UHGV virus genome: UHGV-0180691
Reading direction: 5' to 3' (one strand)
Source of the DNA: a virus
DNA length: 40,865 bases
Positions within the stretch are counted from its first letter, which is position 1. Each line of letters opens with the position of its first letter. A program made the translations under genes and the position numbers. The notes under the pieces are model-generated. The model was not told the DNA's origin. It saw only the letters and a program-made list of their open reading frames with translations, and did no database searches. Positions 9,456-24,672 of the stretch are shown piece after piece.

Positions 9456-11385
9456 AATCATCGTTGATAACTTTGCCGGTGGTGGCGGCGCGAGTACCGG
9501 CATTGAACTGGCCATCGGGCGTAGCGTGGATATCGCTATCAACCACGACGAAAACGCTATTGCGATGCATAAGACGAATCACCCAGACACGCTGCATTAT
9601 TGCGAGTCGGTGTTTGACGTTGACCCAAGCGCAGCCACCAGCGGTAAACCTGTCGGCCTGGCCTGGTTTAGCCCTGACTGCCGCCACTTTTCCAAAGCGA
9701 AGGGCGCTAAGCCAGTTAAGAAAGAGATTCGCGGGCTGGCGTGGATTGTTCTGCGCTGGGCGCTGGCAGTACGTCCCCGAGTCATGATGCTGGAGAACGT
9801 CGAAGAATTTAAGACATGGGGCCCGCTGCTGGATGAAGAATTACGCCCGGATCCTGAGCGTGCTGGTGAAACATTCGAGGCATTTGTCGGCATGCTGTCG
9901 ACTGGTATCGCTGCGAATCACCCAGCACTGGCTGAGGTTTGCGAATTTCTTGCCATTGAGCCGCACGGCAAGCAGGCGCAACAGCTGATCGCCGGGCTTG
10001 GCTATGAGGTCGATTATCGTGAACTGCGCGCTTGTGACTATGGCGCGCCGACGATCAGAAAGCGTTTCTTCATGGTCATGCGTTGTGACGGCCGCAAGAT
10101 TCATTGGCCTGAAGCGACTCATGGGGATCCAAAATCACTGGAAGTACAAAGCGGCAAGCTGGCGCCATGGCGTACCGCGGCGGAGTGCATTGACTGGAAT
10201 ATCCCGGCCCGGTCCATCTTCGACCGCAAAAAGCCGCTGGCGGAAAATACGCTCAAACGTATCGCGCGCGGCATCCAGCGTTTCGTTATCGAGAGTGCTT
10301 CGCCGTTTATCGTTAAGTGCAACCACACCACGTCACACGGCAAATATGATTGTTTCCGTGGGCAGGAGCTCGAGGCTCCATTACAAACCATCACGAAAAC
10401 CCACGGCTATGCGCTGGCGGTACCGCATCTTACTAAATTCCGCACCGGGGCCACCGGGCAGCCAGTGACCGAGCCGGTTCCAACTGTCACCGCTGGTACG
10501 TCGGCGCGCCCGGGCGGGAATGGACATGCGCTTGGCGTAGTTGAGGCCGCCCTGACACCGTTCCTGGCTGGCAATGGCGGCAGTGAGTACCAGGCAAAGC
10601 CGCGCCCGCTGGATAAACCCGCTCATACAATCCTCAAGCAGTCCCACGCGTGCGTGGTTGCGCCGGTCATCGCCCGCCAGTTTGGCGCCAGTGTTGGGCA
10701 CAGGGCTGACGAACCGAGCGCGACGATTACTGCAGGTGGTGGCGGTAAGTCGCAGCTGGTAACTCCAACATTGATCCAGATGGGGTACGGCGAACGCCCA
10801 GGACAAGAACCGCGTGTTCTTCAACTGAATAACCCGCTCGGCACGGTCACTGCTGGTGGTAATAAGTTTGCAACGGTGAGCGCGTTCCTGGCGAAGCACT
10901 ATGGTGGGAATTACACGGGGCCGGGTGTTGGTATGGATGAGCCTGCCCATTCAGTCACTACTGTTGATCATCACGCGGTAGTTGCGTCGCACCTGGTGAA
11001 GCTGCGCGGAACCTGCCGCGACGGTCAGACCATGGATACACCTATGCCGACGATTACCGCTGGTGGCCAGCATGTTGGCGAGGTCCGGACATTCCTCGAA
11101 ACATACTGCGGTGATAGCGAGGATGAATGGCTGGTGACGATCGAGGGGGTTAAGTACCAGATCGTCGATATCGGAATGCGCATGCTGCAACCGCATGAGC
11201 TTTATAAGGCGCAGGGCTTCCCTGACGGCTACGTTATCGATCAGGACTATCGCGGCAATCGTTACGCCAAAGACAAGCAGGTAGCGCGCTGCGGTAACGC
11301 AGTACCGCCGCCGTTCGCTCGTGCTCTGGTAGAAGCAAATCTTCCTGAATTATGTGCAAATCAAAAGGCGGGTGCAGCCGCCTGA
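9448..11385 (+). CDS. DNA cytosine-5 methyltransferase with extended repeat-containing variable region
   Basis: Start at ATG 9448 (MREIIVDNFAGGGGASTG = motif I); SPDCRHFS (catalytic Cys motif IV), MLENVEEF (ENV motif VI), C-terminal LQGFP and GNAVPPPFARAL (motifs IX/X); about 360-aa region between motifs VIII and IX with repeated T(V/I)TAGG modules. Confidence 0.85.
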   Translation: MREIIVDNFAGGGGASTGIELAIGRSVDIAINHDENAIAMHKTNHPDTLHYCESVFDVDPSAATSGKPVGLAWFSPDCRHFSKAKGAKPVKKEIRGLAWIVLRWALAVRPRVMMLENVEEFKTWGPLLDEELRPDPERAGETFEAFVGMLSTGIAANHPALAEVCEFLAIEPHGKQAQQLIAGLGYEVDYRELRACDYGAPTIRKRFFMVMRCDGRKIHWPEATHGDPKSLEVQSGKLAPWRTAAECIDWNIPARSIFDRKKPLAENTLKRIARGIQRFVIESASPFIVKCNHTTSHGKYDCFRGQELEAPLQTITKTHGYALAVPHLTKFRTGATGQPVTEPVPTVTAGTSARPGGNGHALGVVEAALTPFLAGNGGSEYQAKPRPLDKPAHTILKQSHACVVAPVIARQFGASVGHRADEPSATITAGGGGKSQLVTPTLIQMGYGERPGQEPRVLQLNNPLGTVTAGGNKFATVSAFLAKHYGGNYTGPGVGMDEPAHSVTTVDHHAVVASHLVKLRGTCRDGQTMDTPMPTITAGGQHVGEVRTFLETYCGDSEDEWLVTIEGVKYQIVDIGMRMLQPHELYKAQGFPDGYVIDQDYRGNRYAKDKQVARCGNAVPPPFARALVEANLPELCANQKAGAAA

Positions 11386-14291: not shown

Positions 14292-14550
14292 TTTCTTATG
14301 AATACTCTTTATATATCGTCTAGATGCATGTTTTCTTTATGCCAGGTCTTTATTTTTATAAATACGGCAAGTTCTAATTAGAAATTGAGCGCTTCCAGAT
14401 AGGGAGCATTTATTTGTGGAAATGGGCGGCTGGTGGGTGTTGTAGCACCCAACCAGCCATTAGCTCATGCTTTCAGGTCACAAGCTAACCAAGGCCCATT
14501 GCTTTAGCGCAAAAGCATAGTGAGCCTATCAGAGTTACGCTTACGGATCT

Positions 14551-15603
14551 ATGAAAAATACTGTAAATATAAACAGTGTTGAGCTTATCAACGCTGACTG
14601 CCTGCAATACCTAGCAACCCTCCCAGATAACACCATCGACCTTATTGTTACGGATCCGCCTTATTTTAAGGTGAAGCCGAACGGCTGGGATAATCAGTGG
14701 AACGGTGACGCCGACTATCTTCGCTGGCTTGATATGTGTCTTGCCCAGTTCTGGCGAGTGCTTAAGCCTGCCGGCAGCCTGTATTTGTTTTCAGGTCACC
14801 GACTTGCATCCGATATTGAGATCATGATGCGTGAACGCTTCAACGTCATGAACCACATTATCTGGGCGAAGCCATCAGGGCGCTGGAACGGGTGTAATAA
14901 AGAAAGCCTGCGCTCTTACTTTCCCGCGACGGAACGCATCCTTTTCGCTGAGCATTATCAGGGGCCATATAAGCCGAAAAGCGACGGGTTTGCTGAGAAA
15001 AGCAACGAGGTCAAACAGCACGTCATGGCTCCGTTAATCACCTACTTTCGGGATGCACGAGCCGAACTGGGGGTCACGTCCAGGCAAATAGCTGACGCCA
15101 CCGGAAAGAAAAATATGGTGTCTCACTGGTTCGGTGCCAGTCAGTGGCAACTACCGAACGAGCAGGATTACGAAAAGCTGCAGGAATTGTTCACTCAGAT
15201 CGCCATTGAGAAGCACCGCGCCTCAGAACTCAAAGCACCGCATCACCAGCTGGTGGCCACATGGCATTCGTTGAACCGGAAATACCTTGATCTGCTGGAA
15301 GAGTACAAATCTCTTCGGCGGCATTTCTCTGTGACAGTAGCCGTGCCCTATACAGACGTCTGGACACATAAACCCGTCCAGTTCTATCCAGGCAAACACC
15401 CGTGCGAAAAGCCCGCTGATATGTTGCGGCAAATCATCAACGCCAGCAGCAGGCCCGGCGATGTGGTAGCTGATTTCTTTATGGGCTCGGGATCAACTGT
15501 TAAAGCAGCCATTGAACTGGGCCGCCAGGCTATCGGCGTAGAACTGGAAGAGGAACGTTTCAACCAGACGGTAAGTGAGGTGAGGCAGCTGGCAGGGGAA
15601 TAA
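14551..15603 (+). CDS. DNA methyltransferase, N6-adenine/N4-cytosine class (beta-type, DPPY motif)
   Basis: 350 aa; VTDPPYF (motif IV) near N-terminus and FFMGSGST (motif I, AdoMet binding) near C-terminus, the order typical of beta-class amino-methyltransferases. Confidence 0.8.
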   Translation: MKNTVNINSVELINADCLQYLATLPDNTIDLIVTDPPYFKVKPNGWDNQWNGDADYLRWLDMCLAQFWRVLKPAGSLYLFSGHRLASDIEIMMRERFNVMNHIIWAKPSGRWNGCNKESLRSYFPATERILFAEHYQGPYKPKSDGFAEKSNEVKQHVMAPLITYFRDARAELGVTSRQIADATGKKNMVSHWFGASQWQLPNEQDYEKLQELFTQIAIEKHRASELKAPHHQLVATWHSLNRKYLDLLEEYKSLRRHFSVTVAVPYTDVWTHKPVQFYPGKHPCEKPADMLRQIINASSRPGDVVADFFMGSGSTVKAAIELGRQAIGVELEEERFNQTVSEVRQLAGE

Positions 15604-15673
15604 AAGCTTGGGTCGCTATCGCGGCCCTTTTTATTACCTCAACTGGACACCCGCAACGTAGCGAGGTGAGAGC

Positions 15674-15889
15674 ATGTATCGAATGGAAAAAATCACGACG
15701 GGTATTGCATACGGCGCATCGGGAGGGGGGACCGGATACTGGTTGCTTCAGCTCCTCGATAAAGTCTCCCCATCTCAATGGGCGGCCATTGGTGTGCTCG
15801 GTAGCCTCATGTTTGGTTTGCTGACGTGGTTAACGAGTCTGTACTTCCAAATTAAAGCGGATCGCCGCAAAGCTGCGCGGGGTGAATGA
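15674..15889 (+). CDS. S: class II holin / pinholin (phage 21 S-like), dual-start motif
   Basis: 71 aa, two predicted TM helices, C-terminal RRKAARGE; Met1-x-Arg-Met4 dual start; strong resemblance to phage 21 S pinholin as I recall it. Confidence 0.85.
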
Positions 15890-16425
15890 TGTCGAACAAA
15901 GCAAAGCTCAGCGCAGCAGTGCTGGCGCTAATCGCGTCAGGGGCATCTGCTCCACTCATTTTCGACCAATTCATCAGCGAGAAAGAAGGCAATGCGCTGG
16001 TGGCCGTTGTTGATCCGGGTGGGGTCTGGTCTTTATGTCACGGCGTGACCGTTATCGATGGCAGGCGTGTTGTTAAGGGCATGACAGCCACAGAGGAACA
16101 ATGCCGCAAGGTTAACGCTATTGAACGTGATAAGGCATTAGCCTGGGTGGATCGCAATATCAAAGTGCCTCTGACAGAGCCGCAGAAGGTAGGCATCGCA
16201 TCTTTTTGCCCGTACAACATCGGGCCGGGTAAATGCTTCCCGTCCACGTTCTATAAGCGCATCAATGCTGGTGACCGGAAAGGGGCATGTGAAGCTATTC
16301 GCTGGTGGATTAAAGATGGCGGCCGTGATTGCCGACTAACCAAAGGCCAAAAGAATGGCTGCTATGGGCAGGTCGAGCGGCGCGATCAAGAAAGTGCGCT
16401 GGCGTGCTGGGGGCTGGACCAATGA
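15886..16425 (+). CDS. R: SAR endolysin (T4-lysozyme-like muramidase with N-terminal signal-anchor-release domain)
   Basis: 179 aa; Gly/Ala-rich weakly hydrophobic N-terminus ([19 protein letters not shown]); E...D...T catalytic spacing ([22 protein letters not shown]); overlaps holin stop. Confidence 0.85.
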
Positions 16426-16940
16426 AAATTAATGCAGGTCTTATCGGCGTTATCGTTATTGCTGGCCTTTCGGTCGCTCTCGTTAAGAGTTGCTCAAACG
16501 CCAGTAGCCTGCAGAGCGATAACGACGTTCTGCGAAGTGACAACTCTTTGCAGGGGCAGGTGATCGCTACCCAGGCATTCAACTTTAATCGGTTCTATCA
16601 GGTAGCCGAACATGCCAACAGGCTTAACGCCCTGATAGACACCAGCACCGAAGAAACCGTAATCGAATACCGGGAGATTCTCCGCCGTGAAAAAACCTGT
16701 GATCTGCCTGTTCCTGCTGACATTGCTGGTGGGCTGCTCGAATACGCGTACCGTTTACGTGCCAGCGCCATGCACACCGATACCAACAGACCTGACGCAG
16801 CCGATGATCGTGCCGCTGCCGCCAGCTCAATGACGTACTGCCAGGCTGTTTTGTGGATAAAGCCTCTACTGGCCGTGATTGAGAAGGGCAACAATAATTT
16901 CGCTGGCATAAGGCAGATCGAGCAGGAAAGAAAGAACTAG
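16422..16940 (+). CDS. Rz: i-spanin (Rz-like)
   Basis: ATG at 16422 overlapping endolysin stop; N-terminal TM segment; coiled-coil-rich periplasmic region; contains an embedded lipoprotein ORF in another frame. Confidence 0.7.
   Translation: MKINAGLIGVIVIAGLSVALVKSCSNASSLQSDNDVLRSDNSLQGQVIATQAFNFNRFYQVAEHANRLNALIDTSTEETVIEYREILRREKTCDLPVPADIAGGLLEYAYRLRASAMHTDTNRPDAADDRAAAASSMTYCQAVLWIKPLLAVIEKGNNNFAGIRQIEQERKN
16688..16834 (+). CDS. Rz1: o-spanin (Rz1-like outer-membrane lipoprotein) embedded within Rz in an alternative frame
   Basis: Hand translation from GTG 16688: MKKPVICLFLLTLLVGCSNTRTVYVPAPCTPIPTDLTQPMIVPLPPAQ; lipobox LVGC; proline-rich mature region; GGGAGA about 10 nt upstream; below the 60-aa cutoff of the ORF track. 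Confidence 0.6.
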
Positions 16941-17063
16941 GAATAGCTCGTCCTTGAGCACACGGGTATTTCTGAACGACGGCTTTACCTGACATAGCAA
17001 AGCACCGTTAAATTGTAGAAAAGACTCGATATTTAACAAGCGAAGCGCAGCAATGTAAAAAAA

Positions 17064-17092
17064 AATGCCCTCACATGGAGGGCTACCAGAGT
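17064..17092 (-). terminator. rho-independent terminator on minus strand
   Basis: Plus strand shows A9 then GCCCTC-ACATG-GAGGGC; on the minus strand this is a GC stem followed by U9; lies downstream of the minus-strand gene 17355-17852. Confidence 0.6.
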
Positions 17093-17354
17093 CTCAGTTT
17101 CACTTGCTCTTTTTATGGATGTTTCCCAGGAGTTGGCAAACTACTCATCAGAGTCATAAACAGCCTGGCATCCGGCATGAGATTAACAAGCGTAAGCGGA
17201 AAAAATTAAGATTTTACGTATGCAGAAAGATGGAGGTTAGTTGACAAATTATCTATCGTTACACGACACCGACATTCGAGACCACCAGATGCGGAAAGAC
17301 ATCCTCTCTAAGTCAATTGCTGCCTGAACAAAGTTAAAAGCCAAAGCGCATAAT

Positions 17355-17852
17355 TTAATCACACTCTTGCCGTTGCCGATCTAGAGTGTTAAGTGCCTTC
17401 ATGTAAGCGCTATACGCTCCCTTAAATGTTTGTCCAGCCTGCTCAATTGCCGACTCTTGTAATTCTTGATTATTACCAGCGCTGTCTGCGAGATAAAAGG
17501 CCTTAAGAACGTTCGCCGCAACTAAACCCAGCTCAGGAGGGGCGTAGGTCATTACTTCTGTAGCGCTTTGAACTACGGGTAACATATCTTTTCTCAGGTC
17601 GCCTCTGGTCATTGGGTTGGTCAATGCAGGAGAAAAGCCAAACGAAGTAACTGAAACCATAAATTGATTATATTTTTCTCTCAATAGTGACTCCTGCTTA
17701 TCTAAACGAATAATGCAGGCTGTTTTGGAGGCATTGTGAGTTTGTAAATAGTTTCCATACAATCCCAAAAGCGCAGTAATGCTTACACCAAGTAAGGTAC
17801 AGATTACGGGAAAAATGACATTAAACTGGTTTATCCGTGGGCGACTGCTCAT
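17355..17852 (-). CDS. hypothetical single-pass membrane protein; AT-rich insert between lysis and packaging modules
   Basis: ATG at 17852 preceded by AAGGAG with 8-nt spacer; N-terminal hydrophobic helix (FNVIFPVICTLLGVSITALLGLYG); antisense to the late operon; own downstream terminator; AT-rich by eye. Confidence 0.55.
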   Translation of the reverse strand: MSSRPRINQFNVIFPVICTLLGVSITALLGLYGNYLQTHNASKTACIIRLDKQESLLREKYNQFMVSVTSFGFSPALTNPMTRGDLRKDMLPVVQSATEVMTYAPPELGLVAANVLKAFYLADSAGNNQELQESAIEQAGQTFKGAYSAYMKALNTLDRQRQECD

Positions 17853-18263
17853 GACCAAAGCTCCTTAGTTAACAACTTAATTTTCACTAATTAGTAAGTC
17901 CATATTTGCTTGCCATGATTTTAACATCAAGCTCCAGAACGTGGTTGGTAATCATTTTTAGAGTCTCTTTACTTCCAGATTTGACCGTTTTTGTTAATTA
18001 ATTTCCAGCTGGAGAAATGAGGCTAACCGCCTCGATCAGCAAGGGACCGGCAATACTGGTGTCAAAGCATACACGAGAATGAATCTCATAAGTAAAAGGT
18101 ACTCCTGGCGATTATAAACACCGAGGGGGCGAGGACACGCGGAAAAAGCCAAATTTTTGCATTTTTATCGGCCATCACCACCACTTCAATTCATTGAAAC
18201 ATCGGGATAAAAATTTTTCCGGTGTCGATTCTGTTTGTTTTTTGTTCATCACTGGAGCCATTC

Positions 18264-18758
18264 ATGGATCATGAATTAAAGCGACTGCAGCTTAACGTCA
18301 GCCAGCTGGCGGCCTTGTCCGGTGTGCATCGCCAGACTGTGTCAGCCAGGCTGAAAAATGTCCGTCCGGCAGGTGGCAACGACAGCAACCTGAAACTGTA
18401 TGGCCTGACAGATGTCCTTGCTGAGCTGATGAAAATGCCTGCCCCGGTAGCTGAAGGAGAAATGGAGCCTCAGGACCGTAAAGCCTGGTATCAGTCAGAG
18501 CGTGAAAGGCTGAAGTTTGAACAGGAAGTAGGAGAGCTTATTCCCGCTTCAGATGTTGCACGCGAGTTTGCCGAAATGGCGAAGGCCATGATTCAGGTTC
18601 TTGAGACGTTGCCGGATATTCTTGAGCGCGATTGTGCGCTTAATCCTGCAACGGTTTCCCGCGTCCAGTCGATTATTGACGATCTCCGTGATGAAATTGC
18701 CCGGCGGGTCATGAGTGACGAAGAAAAAGCAGAGGAGGACATCCTGGAGGAGGAATAA
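18264..18758 (+). CDS. terminase small subunit (putative, HTH-containing)
   Basis: ATG 18264 with GGAG upstream; N-terminal HTH-like (LNVSQLAALSGVHRQTVSARL); acidic C-terminus; immediately upstream of and abutting the large terminase gene. Confidence 0.6.
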   Translation: MDHELKRLQLNVSQLAALSGVHRQTVSARLKNVRPAGGNDSNLKLYGLTDVLAELMKMPAPVAEGEMEPQDRKAWYQSERERLKFEQEVGELIPASDVAREFAEMAKAMIQVLETLPDILERDCALNPATVSRVQSIIDDLRDEIARRVMSDEEKAEEDILEEE

Positions 18759-20881
18759 TGTTGGCACTGGCGACCGCCCTCACATTGAAACGTGACACCG
18801 GACACCTGATTAAAGCGCCACGCAGAATGCCTGTATCAGTGGCGGTAGCAAAATATATGCGTGTCCCCACCTCCGGAGGTAATTCCGTCCCCTGGGATCC
18901 GATGGTGGCGCCTTATGTTCTGGAGCCTATGGACTGCCTGGCATCCCGTGAATACGACGCCGTGATATTCGTCGGACCTGCCCGAACGGGTAAAACAAAT
19001 GGTCTGATTGACGGATGGGTGGTTTACAACATCGTCTGTGATCCGTCCGATATGCTGCTGGTGCAAATGACACAGGATAAGGCACAGGAGCACTCAAAAA
19101 AGCGTCTTGCCCGAACATTTCGCTGCAGTCCGGAAGTCAGAAAAAACCTGAGCCCCCGGCATAATGACAACAACGTTCACGATAAGTATTTCCTTTCAGG
19201 TAGCTTCCTGAAAATTGGCTGGCCATCCATCAATGTCATGTCGTCATCAGATTTTAAGTGTGTGGCGCTGACGGATTATGACCGATTCCCTGAGGATATT
19301 GATGGCGAGGGCGACGGCTTCTCACTGGCCTCCAAACGTACAACCACCTTCATGTCCGCCGGGATGACGCTTGTAGAGAGTTCTCCGGGGCGTGATATTC
19401 GTGACAGCAAATGGCGCCGCAAGTCTCCTCATGAAGCTCCACCGACGACCGGTATTCTTTCCCTGTACAACCGTGGCGATCGCCGCCGCTGGTACTGGCC
19501 GTGTCCGCACTGCGGTGAATATTTTCAGCCTGCTATGGAGTCCATGACCGGCTACCGTGATGAACCGGATCCGGTTAAAGCCAGTGAGGCGGCACACCTG
19601 CTTTGTCCGCACTGCAGCGGCATTATCACTGCGGATAAAAAGCGCGAGCTTAACGGCGCAGGAGTCTGGTTGCGGGAAGGGCAGAGTATTGACCGTGACG
19701 GCAATGTATCCGGCGAACCGCGGCGATCGCGCATAGCCAGTTTCTGGATGGAAGGACCCGCAGCCGCTTATCAGACCTGGGCGCAGCTGGTGTACAAGCT
19801 GCTGACAGCTGAGCAGGAGTATGAGGCCACTGGCAGCGAAGAAACCCTCAAGGCGGTAATCAATACCGACTGGGGGCTACCATACCTGCCGCGCGCAGCC
19901 AGCGAACAGAGGCGCGCCGATGTGCTGATGCAGCGGGCGGAGGATTACGGTAAGCGCCTGGTCCCGCCTAAGGTGCGTTTCCTGCTGGCGGCCGTTGACG
20001 TCCAGGGCGGCAAAAAGCGCCGTTTCGTCGTGCAGATTATCGGTTATGGCGAAAACGGTGAACGCTGGCTGGTGGATCGCTACAACATCCGCCAGTCGCT
20101 GCGCTGCAATGAGCATGGCGAGGCGGAGCCGATCCACCCGGGCGCGTATCCGGAGGACTGGCAACTGCTGGTCTCCGATGTGCTGGAAAAAACGTATGCG
20201 CTGCAGTCTGACCCGGCGCGGCGTATGCCGGTGCTGGCGATGGCCGTCGACAGCGGCGGTGAAGAAGGCGTGACGGACAACGCGTATAAATTCTGGCGAC
20301 AGTGTCGGCGTGACGGCCTGGGTAAACGTGTTTACCTGGTTAAGGGCGACAGCACAAAGCGTCAGAAAATCATTACCAAAACCCACCCGAATAATACCGA
20401 ACGCAGCGACCGTCGCGCCGACGCGCGCGGCGAGGTGCCGGTGTATCTGCTTCAGACCGACCTGCTTAAGGACCAGCTCAGCAACAACCTGGACCGCGAA
20501 ACCCCCGGTGGCGGATACATCCATTTTCCTGACTGGCTGGGGGAGTGGTTCTACGAGGAACTGACCTATGAAGAACGCGGTGTTGATGGCAAATGGCGAA
20601 AACCCGGCAAGGGCGCCAACGAAGCCTTTGACCTGTTCTGCTATGCGCACGCCGTGGCGGTTCTGCGCGGGTACGAAAAAATTCGCGACTGGGAAAAACC
20701 TCCTGCATGGGCTGAGCCGCAGGATCTCAATCCAAATATTCATGAAGGGACCCCCCCCCGGGAGATAACCGTGAAAAAAACAAAACCCGTTCAGTCGCCT
20801 GTGCAGGCTGAACCTGAAAAGGACACAGCCCTCTCCGGCAGCTGGCTCGGGTCTTCCGTTAAGGGAGGCTGGTTGCTGTGA
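18758..20881 (+). CDS. terminase large subunit (lambda GpA-like)
   Basis: 707 aa; Walker A-like VGPARTGKT; CxxC...CxxC zinc-like motif (CPHCGEYF...CPHCSG); size and context of GpA-family terminases. Confidence 0.9.
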   Translation: MLALATALTLKRDTGHLIKAPRRMPVSVAVAKYMRVPTSGGNSVPWDPMVAPYVLEPMDCLASREYDAVIFVGPARTGKTNGLIDGWVVYNIVCDPSDMLLVQMTQDKAQEHSKKRLARTFRCSPEVRKNLSPRHNDNNVHDKYFLSGSFLKIGWPSINVMSSSDFKCVALTDYDRFPEDIDGEGDGFSLASKRTTTFMSAGMTLVESSPGRDIRDSKWRRKSPHEAPPTTGILSLYNRGDRRRWYWPCPHCGEYFQPAMESMTGYRDEPDPVKASEAAHLLCPHCSGIITADKKRELNGAGVWLREGQSIDRDGNVSGEPRRSRIASFWMEGPAAAYQTWAQLVYKLLTAEQEYEATGSEETLKAVINTDWGLPYLPRAASEQRRADVLMQRAEDYGKRLVPPKVRFLLAAVDVQGGKKRRFVVQIIGYGENGERWLVDRYNIRQSLRCNEHGEAEPIHPGAYPEDWQLLVSDVLEKTYALQSDPARRMPVLAMAVDSGGEEGVTDNAYKFWRQCRRDGLGKRVYLVKGDSTKRQKIITKTHPNNTERSDRRADARGEVPVYLLQTDLLKDQLSNNLDRETPGGGYIHFPDWLGEWFYEELTYEERGVDGKWRKPGKGANEAFDLFCYAHAVAVLRGYEKIRDWEKPPAWAEPQDLNPNIHEGTPPREITVKKTKPVQSPVQAEPEKDTALSGSWLGSSVKGGWLL

Positions 20882-21093
20882 CGAAAGATGATATCTGGAA
20901 AACGCTGCTGATGGTGCGTCAGGCCTACCAGGACTCGCTGGACGGCAAGAGCATTTCTTTCACAGGCGTGAATGGTCGCGCCATTACCAACCACGATCCG
21001 AAAGCGTTGCGCGACGAGCTTGATTACTGGGAGCGGCGCTGGCGGGCGGTCAACCGCCGCGGCGGTTCGTACAAACTCGCTAACTTTCTGTAA
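20878..21093 (+). CDS. head-tail joining protein (gpW-like)
   Basis: 71 aa; GTG start overlapping terminase stop; position between terminase and portal as lambda W. Confidence 0.55.
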   Translation: MTKDDIWKTLLMVRQAYQDSLDGKSISFTGVNGRAITNHDPKALRDELDYWERRWRAVNRRGGSYKLANFL

Positions 21094-21101
21094 GGCGTTC
21101 T

Positions 21102-22622
21102 ATGGGCATTCTTGAAAGAACACTGGGGGCTATTTCCCCCGGGTGGGCAGCGGCACGCGCGCGGGACCGTCTCCGGCTTAATGCTTATGAAGCGGCAAAC
21201 CCGTCACGGCTGCACAAGGCTAAAAAGCAAAGTCAGTCCGCGGACACCTCGGTATTTGCAGCAGGTCAGTCCCTGCGGGAACAGGCCCGGTGGCTCGATG
21301 AAAATCACGATCTGGTGATCGGCCTGTTCGACAAAATGGAAGACAGGGTAATCGGTGCCCACGGTATCCATGTTGAGCCCCAGCCTCTCGATCTGGAGGG
21401 AAACCTCCATTCCGAGTTCGCGGGGCAGCTTTCGGCGCTCTGGGCGGAGTGGTCCGTGCGTCCTGAAGTGACTGGCATGTTTACCCGTCCGGAAGCCGAG
21501 CGCCTGCTGTTGCGTTCTGCGCTGCGTGACGGGGAAGTGTTCACGCAACTGGTCAGGGGAAACGTACCCGGCCTGCAGCATGCCACGTCAGTACCGTTTT
21601 CTCTGGAAATGCTGGAGGCGGATTTTGTGCCGTTCAATCTTAACAGCACCGCCGGCCAGCAGGTTCGCCAGGGCATCATCGTGAACGACTGGGGGCGTCC
21701 CGTCGGCTACCGCGTTTACAAATATCATCCGGCGAACATGATGCGGTTCAGCGCGGAACTTAAAACCGTCTCTGCTGACAACATGCTTCACCTGGCGCAG
21801 CGCAAGCGGCTGCACCAGCTGCGGGGTATCAGCCTGATCCACGGAGTCATTACCCGTCTTTCGGACATCAAGGATTATGAAGAGAGCGAGCGCGTGGCCG
21901 CCCGTATTGCCGCTGCACTGGGCTTTTACATCAAGCGCGGCGATGCACAGTCACTTGGTGATGACGGTGAGTTTTCAACCCCCGGCGGGCAGCGTCACTA
22001 CGATATCGCGCCGGGCATGATTTATGACGAACTCCGCCCCGGCGAAGACCTTGGCATGGTGGAGTCAAACCGCCCGAACGTTCATCTCTACGAGTTCCGA
22101 AACGGGCAGATGCGGGCCGTGGCCGCCGGTACGCGCGGCAGTTATTCCAGCATTGCCCGGGACTATAACGGCACCTACAGCTCCCAGCGTCAGGAACTGG
22201 TGGAGAGCTTTGAAGGTTACAACGTCCTCCAGCAGTGGTTTGTCGGCCAGCACAGCCGGCCCGTTTACCGCGCATGGCTGGCGATGGCGTTGCTGAGCGG
22301 CGTTGAAGTCCCGCCGGATGTGGATCCGAATTCTCTCTATAACGCACTTTATCTCGGGCCGGTGATGCCGTGGATTGATCCGGGCAAAGAGGCGAACGCC
22401 TGGAAAGCCATTGTGCGTGGCGGCGCGGGCACCGAAGCGGAATGGGCGCGGGCCAGGGGGAAAAATCCTCAGGAGGTTAAGCGCCAGCGACTGCGTGAAA
22501 CTGAATTTAACCGTAAACACGGGCTGGTGTTTGATTCCGACGCCGCCAATGACAAAGGAGCGATGCCAGATGCAACGGCAAAACCAGACGATAAACGGCG
22601 TGAGCCGGACGATGATGATTAA
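21102..22622 (+). CDS. portal protein (lambda gpB-like)
   Basis: 506 aa; position after terminase/W; acidic C-terminus; size typical of lambda-family portal. Confidence 0.85.
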   Translation: MGILERTLGAISPGWAAARARDRLRLNAYEAANPSRLHKAKKQSQSADTSVFAAGQSLREQARWLDENHDLVIGLFDKMEDRVIGAHGIHVEPQPLDLEGNLHSEFAGQLSALWAEWSVRPEVTGMFTRPEAERLLLRSALRDGEVFTQLVRGNVPGLQHATSVPFSLEMLEADFVPFNLNSTAGQQVRQGIIVNDWGRPVGYRVYKYHPANMMRFSAELKTVSADNMLHLAQRKRLHQLRGISLIHGVITRLSDIKDYEESERVAARIAAALGFYIKRGDAQSLGDDGEFSTPGGQRHYDIAPGMIYDELRPGEDLGMVESNRPNVHLYEFRNGQMRAVAAGTRGSYSSIARDYNGTYSSQRQELVESFEGYNVLQQWFVGQHSRPVYRAWLAMALLSGVEVPPDVDPNSLYNALYLGPVMPWIDPGKEANAWKAIVRGGAGTEAEWARARGKNPQEVKRQRLRETEFNRKHGLVFDSDAANDKGAMPDATAKPDDKRREPDDDD

Positions 22623-24672
22623 CCCCCGCGCCAGCCTGGCGGGTGTCGATGCGGCGAACGGTCAGTGCTGGTACGAAATCCGCGCGCTGGCTGCCGGACG
22701 GGTCGAAATCTTCCTTTATGACGTGATCGGCGGCTGGGGCATTACTGCCCAGCAGTTCGTCACTGACTGTAAAGAGGCGGGGGTGTTTGAGGCCAGCGCG
22801 GTGGATCTGCATATCCACAGTCCCGGCGGCGATGTCATGCAGGGCTTTGCCATCTTCAACACCCTGTCTCGGCTGAAAGCGAAGATCGATATCTGGGTGG
22901 ACGGCGTGGCGGCCAGCATGGCCTCAATGATTGTCTGCCTGCCGGGCGCCACGGTGCACATGCCGGAAAACGCCTGGATTATGGTGCACAAACCATGGGG
23001 CGGTATAGCCGGGGATTCTGACGACATGCGCGATTACGCCGCATGGCTTGATCGTAACGAAGCCCTGATGCTCAGCGCCTATATGAACAAAACAGGACTG
23101 GGGCAGGAAGAGCTGGAAGCGATGCTGAAAGCGGAGACCTGGCTTAACGGTGCCGAGGCGGTGGAAAAAGGCTTCGCCGACACGCTTGAACCTGAACTGC
23201 AGGCCGCGGCCTGTGTGAATGAAAATAAACTGAAGGATTACCAGAATATGCCAGAACAGATTAAATCTCTTTTCACGCCGCGCGCCGAAGCTCCGGTGAA
23301 TCAGCCACCGCAACCTGCTCCGGTACAGGCAAACCTTAACACGCCAGCGCCACAACAGCCTGCACCGCAGATGACAAATATCGATATCACCGCGCTGGCC
23401 CAGCAGCTGCAGCAGCAGATGCAGACGGCGAACGCAGAGCGTGTGAATTCCGTCTCAGCCGTATTTGAGGCGTTCCCGGCCTTCGCGACGCTGAAGGCTG
23501 AATGTCTGGCCGACTTCACCTGCAACGCTGAAAAAGCCCGCGATAAACTGCTGCAGGCGCTGGCGGCGGGCACCACTCCGAGCGCTGGTCCGGGCGCGAT
23601 TCATCTTTATGCCGGTAACGGCAATCTGGTCGGTGATTCCATTCGCGCTGCAGTAATGACCCGAGCGGGCTATGCGCAAGCCGAAAATGATAATGCTTAC
23701 AACGGTTACACCCTGCGCGAACTGGCACGCGCCTCCCTTGTTGATCGCGGTATCGGTATCTCCGGCGCTGGCACGGCACAGGCGATGGTCGGGCTGGCGT
23801 TCACCCACAGCAGCAGCGATTTCGGCAATATCCTGATGGATGTGGCACACAAAGCGGCTCTGATGGGCTGGGAGGAAGCCACCGAAACCTTTGAACAGTG
23901 GACCCGTAAGGGCACGCTGACCGATTTCAAAACCGCGCACCGCGTAGGTCTGGAATCACTGGCATCGCTTCGCAAGGTCCGAGCCGGGGCAGAATATAAA
24001 TATGTCACCATCAAGGATCGCGGCGAGCCAATTGCCCTGGCGACCTACGGAGAACTTTTCAGCATTGACCGGCAGACCATCATCAACGATGACCTGGACA
24101 TGCTGACCCGTATCCCACAGGCAATGGGGCTTGCTGCGCGTGCCACCGTGGGCGATCTCGTTTGGGCGGTGCTGACTAGCAACCCGAAAATGTCCGATGG
24201 TAAGCCGTTATTCCACGCCGATCACGGCAACCTTGTATCCGCCGATCTGAGTATCGAAGGCCTGGATACGGCGCGTAAGGCGATGCTGCTGCAAAAATCG
24301 GGCGATCGCCGTCTGAATATTCGCCCGGCCTTTATGCTCACGCCAGTGGCAATTGAGTCACGGGCAAACCAGTTGATCAAATCAGCAAGCGTGCCGGGCG
24401 CGGATGCCAACAGCGGTATCGTGAACCCGATCCAGAACTTTGTGACGGTGGCCTCTGAGGCTCGCCTGGATGACAGCAGCCCGACGGATTACTACCTGAC
24501 CGCTGCACAGGGACGCGACACCATTGAGGTGGCATATCTCGACGGCATCGACACCCCGTATCTGGAGCAGCAGCAGGGCTTCACCGTTGACGGCGCTGCG
24601 TTTAAGGTGCGTATCGATGCCGGGGTTGCACCGCTTGACTGGCGCGGCATGGTTAAAGTCACCAAAAAATAA
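22570..24672 (+). CDS. fused prohead protease (ClpP/S49-like) - scaffold - major capsid protein (tripartite capsid gene)
   Basis: Start set at ATG 22570 (AAAGGAG 9 nt upstream; alternative ATG 22612/22615); N-terminal HIHSPGGDVMQGFAIFNTL...MVHKPWGG protease region; central Q/A/P-rich low-complexity scaffold-like region; C-terminal MCP-sized domain; strong terminator follows. Confidence 0.8.
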   Translation: MQRQNQTINGVSRTMMINPRASLAGVDAANGQCWYEIRALAAGRVEIFLYDVIGGWGITAQQFVTDCKEAGVFEASAVDLHIHSPGGDVMQGFAIFNTLSRLKAKIDIWVDGVAASMASMIVCLPGATVHMPENAWIMVHKPWGGIAGDSDDMRDYAAWLDRNEALMLSAYMNKTGLGQEELEAMLKAETWLNGAEAVEKGFADTLEPELQAAACVNENKLKDYQNMPEQIKSLFTPRAEAPVNQPPQPAPVQANLNTPAPQQPAPQMTNIDITALAQQLQQQMQTANAERVNSVSAVFEAFPAFATLKAECLADFTCNAEKARDKLLQALAAGTTPSAGPGAIHLYAGNGNLVGDSIRAAVMTRAGYAQAENDNAYNGYTLRELARASLVDRGIGISGAGTAQAMVGLAFTHSSSDFGNILMDVAHKAALMGWEEATETFEQWTRKGTLTDFKTAHRVGLESLASLRKVRAGAEYKYVTIKDRGEPIALATYGELFSIDRQTIINDDLDMLTRIPQAMGLAARATVGDLVWAVLTSNPKMSDGKPLFHADHGNLVSADLSIEGLDTARKAMLLQKSGDRRLNIRPAFMLTPVAIESRANQLIKSASVPGADANSGIVNPIQNFVTVASEARLDDSSPTDYYLTAAQGRDTIEVAYLDGIDTPYLEQQQGFTVDGAAFKVRIDAGVAPLDWRGMVKVTKK

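Follow-up and report, generated by a model that had tools for sequence, protein, structure and literature searches.

An antisense cargo gene between the lysis and terminase genes of a lambda-like prophage very probably encodes a membrane-anchored periplasmic protein of an apparently undescribed family

We analyzed UHGV virus genome UHGV-0180691, a viral DNA of 40,865 nucleotides (the whole stretch, hereafter the window), with a focus on gene B, a minus-strand gene for a protein of 165 amino acids (aa) that lies between the lysis gene Rz and the small terminase gene. We observe that gene B is an inserted accessory gene (moron) that occupies a variable slot and has been horizontally transferred, and we consider it very probable that this moron encodes a membrane-anchored periplasmic protein. 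The family to which it belongs appears to be previously undescribed, with no match to described families. The protein probably protects or alters the envelope of the lysogen. Of the possible functions, superinfection exclusion, the keeping out of other phages, is the likeliest, and the full statement, exclusion included, is put forward as a tentative one. The coding sequence and its translation signal are the following.

17355..17852, minus strand: gene B coding sequence, 165-aa protein (evidence from the open reading frame [ORF] itself, the ratio of non-synonymous to synonymous substitution rates [dN/dS], homologues, and an AlphaFold2 [AF2] model)
17861..17866, minus strand: Shine-Dalgarno sequence AAGGAG, read from the sequence, with AAGGAG or GAGGAG kept in the related loci L002 and L003

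The case for insertion is carried by the comparison with related prophages. Rz stops at 16940, and the small terminase gene starts with an ATG at 18264. The 1323 bp between them agree with the ~1.3 kb given in the initial annotation and hold most of a variable region and a conserved block to its right.

16925..18093, no strand assigned: variable (moron) slot, from the Rz end to the conserved cos-proximal block (limits of collinearity with the Scandinavium lactucae prophage L016)
18094..18263, plus strand: conserved cos-proximal block upstream of the small terminase gene (conserved in Citrobacter phage Chris1, L016, and L001-L005)

The S. lactucae prophage is collinear with the window over 14409-16924 (88% nucleotide identity) and over 18094-23738 (91%). 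Where the window has 1169 bp between these two segments, the prophage has 683 bp of unrelated DNA that holds a plus-strand GrlR-like ORF with its own terminator. Gene B was not found within 5 kb of the small terminase in any of the six genomes whose small terminase is closest (69-97% identity), nor was it found in phage Chris1, and prophages with a small terminase only ~63% identical carry an 80-93% identical gene B in the same slot, next to different lysis modules. The gene is thus present here and absent at the same position in close relatives (L016, the six small-terminase relatives, and Chris1). Furthermore, its base composition is unlike that of its flanks, with a GC content of 0.43 and a GC content at third codon positions (GC3) of 0.40 versus 0.51-0.57 and 0.54-0.63, respectively, for the flanking genes (GC is 0.42 for the slot, 16941-18093, and 0.53 for the whole window). 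These are two of the properties by which morons are described (PMC3594210, citing Juhala et al. 2000), the others being a promoter and a terminator of their own and expression from the repressed prophage. Both the higher AT content and the insertion had been described in the initial annotation and are borne out here, gene B being neither a structural, lysis, or packaging gene nor conserved in all relatives.

The ORF runs from an ATG at 17852-17850 to a stop at 17355-17357, and an 8-nt spacer, CTTTGGTC, separates the ATG from AAGGAG (17866-17861), so that both the ORF and its ribosome-binding site (RBS) read as first annotated; an in-frame TTG upstream, at 17858, is the longer possible start given in the automatic ORF listing. 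All window comparisons with estimable dS give a dN/dS of 0.07-0.13, and homologous ORFs in other prophages give 0.02-0.13 wherever dS is estimable (dS is saturated between the window and L001). Ratios of 0.02-0.13 indicate that gene B is a real protein-coding gene under purifying selection. As a separate observation, a truncated gene B (the C-terminal 65 codons, 89% nucleotide identity) is found at 5004-5201 of L043 (E. coli 1344_LBHALD, NZ_CP129240), at the edge of a prophage remnant, adjoining a tRNA-Arg gene and near yqaB.

The protein starts with MSSRPRINQ, followed by a 24-residue hydrophobic stretch (residues 10-33), whose hydropathy is highest, with a Kyte-Doolittle mean of 2.31, over the 19 residues from residue 12. 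AF2, run with a 54-sequence alignment, returned a model with a predicted local distance difference test score (pLDDT) of 93.4, a predicted template modeling score (pTM) of 0.76, and helices at residues 9-72, 83-103, 106-124, 129-143, and 146-163. Hydropathy and the modeled helix over residues 9-72 both agree with the N-terminal transmembrane (TM) helix predicted in the initial annotation, and the fold is modeled with high confidence as one TM helix continuing into an up-down four-helix bundle. In 48 of the 54 relatives, basic residues stand before the hydrophobic segment, and for the gene B protein a type II inner-membrane topology is predicted, with its basic tail (residues 1-9) in the cytoplasm, the TM segment at residues ~10-33, and the bundle in the periplasm.

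With respect to conservation, Cys46 and Cys164 form two invariant columns of the 54-sequence alignment. All 54 relatives have exactly two cysteines after the TM segment, at these columns, the first lying 14-22 residues beyond the hydrophobic segment and the second 0-3 residues from the C terminus in 40 of the 54. E54, R58, and R161 are nearly invariant (≥90%) in the same alignment, and two motifs recur in the family, CIxRxDxQExxLRxK on helix 1 and AYAPxEL at the turn between helices 2 and 3. Since the Cys pair is invariant, it points to a periplasmic (oxidizing) location, and on the model the bundle is probably periplasmic, with a Cys46-Cys164 disulfide that staples the C terminus to the base of helix 1. 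The up-down topology should place C164 (end of the last helix) along with R161, C46-K60 (helix 1), and YAPPEL at 103-108 (turn between helices 2 and 3) at the membrane-proximal end, so that both the disulfide and a single conserved membrane-proximal patch are plausible. A lipoprotein reading of Cys18 was rejected, given that the preceding residue is I, L, or V, that Cys18 lies inside the 24-residue hydrophobic helix, and that it is not conserved in the wider family.

Searches of Pfam, NCBIfam, PHROGs, and PADLOC profiles with the gene B protein gave no usable match (the strongest hits were to CedA, E = 0.18, and to an unknown PHROG, E = 0.14), and Pfam held no family for it at E ≤ 10. A profile search of PDB sequences likewise gave nothing (best DgkB, E = 0.62), and Foldseek against the PDB found no significant fold match, with PcaY_PP (6s33, E = 0.02) as the best and Tsr, Tar, TorS, and QseE also returned. 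When the 54 relatives were searched against the same libraries, we observed only weak matches of singletons or doubletons and no family common to all; the PHROG matches were sporadic and weak, and 0 of the 54 matched PADLOC-DB 2.0 at E ≤ 0.01. These profile and Foldseek results are in line with the initial annotation, which could assign the protein to no family.

The family is small. A word-indexed protein search recovered only six clusters among 5.8 billion, and an exhaustive profile search recovered 79 representatives (of 50%-identity clusters) at E ≤ 0.001, nearly all of them 150-215 aa long. One sequence of the exhaustive search, P0015 (2081 aa, 30 matched stretches), was left out as a repeat artifact because it consists of ~30 near-identical tandem copies of a ~69-aa unit. 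Members are spread over Enterobacterales and Pseudomonas, with named ones in Citrobacter, Enterobacter, Pantoea, Pectobacterium, Escherichia, and Pseudomonas, all annotated as "hypothetical"; among 50,697 GenBank phage records, a relative occurs in one, Pseudomonas phage vB_PaeS-D14H. Its genomic contexts are the following.

Context a: lysis/cos-terminase junction of sheath-tailed (myovirus-type) lambdoid prophages with a GpA terminase, the window's own type
Context b: between the lysis and terminase genes of an Enterobacter prophage whose packaging genes are of the Terminase_2/Terminase_6 type (27% identity)
Context c: between MuF-like head-morphogenesis and scaffold genes of siphovirus-type prophages of enterobacteria and Pseudomonas
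Context d: between opposite-strand genes near an integrase gene in Pantoea
Context e: two chromosomal sites without an obvious prophage

In every prophage context examined, the gene B family member is antisense to both of its neighbors, and at least four unrelated backbones are involved. A function expressed in the lysogen fits these observations, because the gene has been captured repeatedly and backwards in late operons, is under purifying selection, and encodes a small envelope protein; we infer expression from the repressed prophage. In the mechanism that we propose, gene B would be a horizontally mobile moron in the cargo slot that a lambda-like cos genome has on its right, between Rz/Rz1 and cos. 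Its protein would be made from the repressed prophage, would act at the periplasmic face of the inner membrane, and would block DNA delivery by superinfecting phages, the target being either a tail or ejection component of the incoming phage or an inner-membrane factor that the phage uses.

Exclusion is ranked first among the possible functions because there are precedents for inner-membrane proteins of this kind that block DNA entry from a resident prophage, namely HK97 gp15, itself a moron (PMC3594210), and P22 SieA (PMC10883804). Like gp15, which belongs to the YebO family and is the prototype of exclusion proteins encoded by morons, gene B encodes a small prophage moron protein of the inner membrane, lies inside a late operon, and has chromosomal relatives outside prophages (PMC3594210). 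The two differ in position, since gp15 is located between the tail-chaperone and tape-measure genes (PMC3594210) whereas gene B is antisense at the lysis/cos junction, and also in architecture, the bulk of the gene B protein being a predicted 130-residue periplasmic bundle with a conserved Cys pair. Neither YebO nor any other Pfam family is found for gene B at E ≤ 10, and none is common to the 54 relatives. SieA is of nearly the same length (162-164 aa versus 165 aa) and is an inner-membrane, prophage-expressed protein that blocks DNA injection, but three TM segments are predicted for it, and its cytoplasmic part has the conserved motif FxRYPxEAxxFNK (PMC10883804). The gene B protein has one hydrophobic segment, lacks the motif, and has no PHROG match.

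In its position after Rz/Rz1, before cos, and opposite to the late operon, gene B resembles lambda bor, which is placed and oriented in the same way. Bor is an outer-membrane lipoprotein of ~97 aa; unlike the Bor/Cor lipoproteins, the gene B protein has no lipobox at a plausible cleavage site and no Pfam or PHROG match. By the searches and the defining features compared, the gene B protein is outside the SieA, gp15/YebO, Bor/Cor, spanin, and 4HB_MCP families and outside all PADLOC families. A more specific proposal is that it represents an undescribed exclusion family, in which a single-pass, disulfide-stapled bundle would use its conserved membrane-proximal face to block genome entry by diverse tailed phages, spread by horizontal transfer to antisense late-operon slots of at least four unrelated prophage lineages in Enterobacterales and Pseudomonas and here adjoined by an Rz-linked small RNA (sRNA); this we regard as speculative and, as a whole, rather doubtful.

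The region upstream of gene B holds the traces of a second gene and a promoter candidate.

17887..18024, minus strand: 3' remnant of gene A, ~45 codons, with an in-frame TAA (aligns to the intact copy of L001 and the frameshifted copy of L002)
17918..17926, minus strand: candidate extended -10 element TGtTAAAAT, 65 nt upstream of the gene B ATG (relaxed scan, pattern match only)

Gene A (143 aa) lies upstream of gene B on the same strand in L001, where it is intact (9535-9966), and in L028-L033; its product is acidic, has no TM segment, and matches phrog_2266 (E = 1e-32), a group with no function assigned. The gene is frameshifted in L002, deleted from ~codon 6 to the gene B RBS in L003-L008 (L003 9970-9990), and reduced to a remnant in the window and L025-L027, where ~460 bp are lost relative to L001/L002, with the junction near 18022-18024 and a remnant translation that reads ...SPAGN*LTKTVKSGSKETLKMITNHVLELDVKIMASKYGLTN*. 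Since two independent deletions spare gene B, gene A is dispensable and gene B is kept, and from these alignments gene B is the survivor of a two-gene cassette. Gene A was rejected as an obligate partner, as relatives of it stand alone in P2-like phages and it was deleted twice independently with gene B retained. For one of these lone relatives, in phage Midge, the annotation notes that HHpred finds a resemblance to T7 gp5.5/5.7. In L001 (9315-9542, minus strand) and L002 (9313-9546, minus strand), we also observe an ORF of 75-77 aa, on the strand of the late operon, in the interval that separates cos from gene A; it overlaps the gene A start, has weak matches to phrog_25421 and phrog_3787, and is absent from the window because of the deletion.

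No consensus sigma-70 promoter was found upstream of gene B in the window or in five other contexts, and promoter scans of the window and six further loci gave no consistent site. The candidate TGtTAAAAT lies within the gene A remnant and is present in L025/L026, while L001/L002, which have the full-length gene A region, read GCGTAAAAAT there. In addition, a TATAAT without a -35 element at 18116-18111 (minus strand) is perfect in the window alone, its relatives having CAGAAT or similar.

This lack of a consensus promoter counts against the proposed mechanism, and so do three other points: some relatives lie outside recognizable prophages, the proximity of Cys46 and Cys164 and the clustering of the conserved residues are taken from the helix topology only, and the four-helix bundle is a generic fold that fits many functions.

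Among the alternatives, a lysogenic-conversion or host-fitness factor survives best, as a possible reading ranked just below exclusion. The bundle would in this case bind or mimic a host envelope component, such as a sensor kinase or chemoreceptor, through its periplasmic domain, or a component of the envelope-stress response, and so alter signaling or the envelope; MzrA and MgrB are small membrane regulators that act on the periplasmic domains of sensors. The best, non-significant fold matches given above include periplasmic four-helix-bundle ligand-binding domains (PcaY_PP, Tsr, Tar, TorS, and QseE), and, as in the 4HB_MCP/TarH sensor domains, the TM helix of the gene B protein continues into helix 1 of an up-down periplasmic bundle. 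Unlike these sensors, the protein has no second TM segment or cytoplasmic signaling domain and ends at residue 165, after helix 4, with a C-terminal Cys that is probably stapled to helix 1, and the Pfam family is matched by 0 of the 54 relatives. Similar slots elsewhere hold host-directed cargo (Ivy, GrlR-like, CspI, and GnsB), some relatives are chromosomal and outside prophages, and the family spans plant-associated and enteric hosts, all of which is consistent with a role directed at the host.

An immunity-type protein is an unlikely alternative: a tethered periplasmic binder that would neutralize a bacteriocin, an effector of a type VI secretion system (T6SS) or of contact-dependent inhibition (CDI), a lysozyme-like enzyme, or the lytic domain of an incoming tail (compare T4 Spackle). 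Its topology and disulfide-stabilized periplasmic domain resemble those of periplasmic immunity proteins and inhibitors, which counts in favor of this reading, as does the Ivy moron in the neighboring slot of many related prophages, one of which also has a gene B family member. Against it, no cognate toxin gene adjoins gene B in any locus examined, and the protein has no similarity to immunity or inhibitor families in Pfam or among the sequences of solved structures, nor a significant structural match.

Improbable, too, is that gene B in the window is a silent relic, the deletion of gene A and its upstream DNA having also removed the promoter. The ~460-bp deletion relative to L001/L002 and the missing consensus sigma-70 promoter would be consistent with such a loss, but the ORF and RBS are intact, and the extended -10-like TGtTAAAAT has arisen inside the remnant. 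Moreover, within the lineage that has lost gene A (the window, L025, and L026), 7-12.5 synonymous versus 2-5.5 non-synonymous changes are observed, and the resulting dN/dS of 0.07-0.13 weakens this reading.

A lytic-cycle accessory, that is, an antiholin-like or spanin-like membrane protein, is very unlikely and is largely refuted by orientation and distribution: the gene adjoins the lysis cassette, its product shares with i-spanins (Rz) and T4 RI an N-terminal membrane segment and a helical periplasmic domain with conserved cysteines, and a few of the 54 relatives weakly match Rz-like spanin PHROGs (two relatives, E = 0.007 and 0.009) or a holin PHROG (one relative), but it is antisense to the late operon in every prophage context, lies far from the lysis genes in the many phages that carry it between MuF and scaffold in the head module, and is missing from close phage relatives. 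The window already has Rz/Rz1, to which a relationship was rejected (hhalign probability 0.7% against Rz, over the TM segment only), and the protein is modeled as a compact bundle, not an extended coiled coil, with no embedded or adjacent lipoprotein (o-spanin) partner in the ORF list.

On the downstream side of gene B, we observe a terminator that forms part of a separate unit.

17057..17083, minus strand: intrinsic terminator, stem GCCCTC / GAGGGC with the 5-nt loop CATGT, followed by A and U9
17057..17212, minus strand: Rz-linked conserved non-coding element ending in this terminator, a candidate sRNA of ~140 nt

The initial annotation had described gene B as self-contained, with its own terminator at 17064-17092 after a 3' untranslated region (UTR) of about 260 nt. 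A minus-strand hairpin with U9 does exist, its true span being 17057-17083 (stem 17083-17067, U-run 17065-17057), and the distance from the gene B stop codon to the stem is ~271 nt, close to the length first given. The hairpin and ~150 nt of the supposed 3' UTR, however, belong to an independent element that is found in 70 contigs without gene B. With a terminator that is not specific to the gene, no consensus promoter upstream, and a ~460-bp deletion that took gene A and upstream DNA, the description as self-contained does not hold. The element reads as something other than gene B's own terminator or UTR, and its terminator would also stop gene B transcripts. A structured UTR over the ~260 nt was rejected as well, since folding is no better than in shuffled sequences (z = +0.83) and the conserved part is the separate element.

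The terminator has the form of an intrinsic one, a 6-bp stem and then U9, and its stem is kept with compensatory changes across 56 sequences (GCCCTC/GAGGGC, GCTCTC/GAGAGC, and GCCTCCC/GGGGGC), alignment pairs 149-161 and 151-159 being changed on both sides. The link of the element to Rz is seen in Escherichia phage PHB10, where the DNA directly after an Rz-like gene is 79% identical to window 16943-17212 and where a phage-collection search found no gene B homologue. A 28-nt core pattern (26 specified bases) is found in 73 IMG/VR contigs, in 58 distinct variants; in 54 of these contigs the element lies at a fixed ~149 nt past the end of an Rz homologue, and only 3 of the 73 have gene B. Some 30 of the contigs have a plus-strand ORF of ~141 aa to the right of the element; one of these ORFs was scanned and proved to be a gene for the lysozyme inhibitor Ivy.

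Columns 17060-17210 are 90-100% conserved versus 70-90% for the Rz coding region, a figure somewhat inflated by the pattern-based selection of copies, and the minus-strand element ends in a hairpin and U6-9 across copies. RNAalifold predicts a long-range helix of 17196-17185 with 17108-17093, which fits the minus strand only, because it has invariant U.G and G.U pairs that could not form if the opposite strand were the transcript. Over the structure of the element, 99.5% of cells are paired versus 31-49% when the partners are slid, and 10 cells are changed on both sides versus 3.3 ± 1.5 in shuffles. These patterns suggest that the element is probably a separate unit, a minus-strand sRNA of ~140 nt. 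No conserved ORF was seen in the element and no promoter was found for it; Rfam gave no match (asX2 alone came up, with E = 0.48 and on the opposite strand), and the whole window has no Rfam match at gathering score and no tRNAs. No match to the element was found in 5,426 complete E. coli genomes searched in distant mode. The sRNA svsR of prophage NC-SV was rejected as a relative of the element: the two are unrelated, svsR lying at the cI 3' end. Just downstream of the terminator, a promoter-like TTGTTA-16-TACAAT (9/12) at 17012-17039 on the minus strand points antisense into Rz/Rz1 and is the same at the equivalent place in L056, and the stretch past the Rz stop (16941-17056) is 70-90% conserved with no obvious ORF.

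The flanking genes have Pfam matches to a P21-type holin, a phage lysozyme, a DUF1441 small terminase, and a GpA large terminase. Rz/Rz1 have no Pfam match and were identified by architecture alone, as a TM protein with an embedded lipoprotein ORF (MKKPVICLFLLTLLVGC). To the right of the slot, the cos-proximal block includes a cosN-like sequence, GGGGGCGAGGAC, at ~18125-18136, which aligns with GGGCGGGAGCGT, the left terminus of phage Tritos in its linear record, and on this alignment the block 18094-18263 would contain the cos site. Because the block aligns with the Tritos left end, the right terminus of the virion chromosome would be ~270 bp away from gene B.

The cargo of the slot differs among relatives. 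Tritos fills the equivalent slot with cspI, ynfN, gnsB, ybcV (antisense), and ybcW, while in many related contigs it is filled by an Ivy (inhibitor of vertebrate lysozyme) gene and then an antisense 86-aa ORF. Other slot cargo was located at L016 4357-4677, which is the GrlR-like ORF (its score is below the Pfam cut-off), at L056 8194-8619, and at L123 9752-10165.

Prophage morons are common and are a main source of lysogen phenotypes, and most of them have no assigned function. The repeated capture of gene B family members, always backwards, in late operons of phages that are unrelated speaks for an advantage to the lysogen. As modeled, the family would be a tractable target: it is small and sharply defined, its fold is predicted with high confidence, and it would combine the invariant Cys pair with a conserved surface patch. 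The Rz-linked element would be a prophage RNA so far missing from annotation, with dozens of enterobacterial prophages carrying it, and may match gene B in interest; if neither the exclusion nor the RNA idea holds, the locus is an ordinary cargo gene. Should gene B turn out to block phage entry, the few inner-membrane exclusion proteins now known would be joined by one with a new architecture, and it would offer a way to study the passage of tailed phages across the inner membrane.

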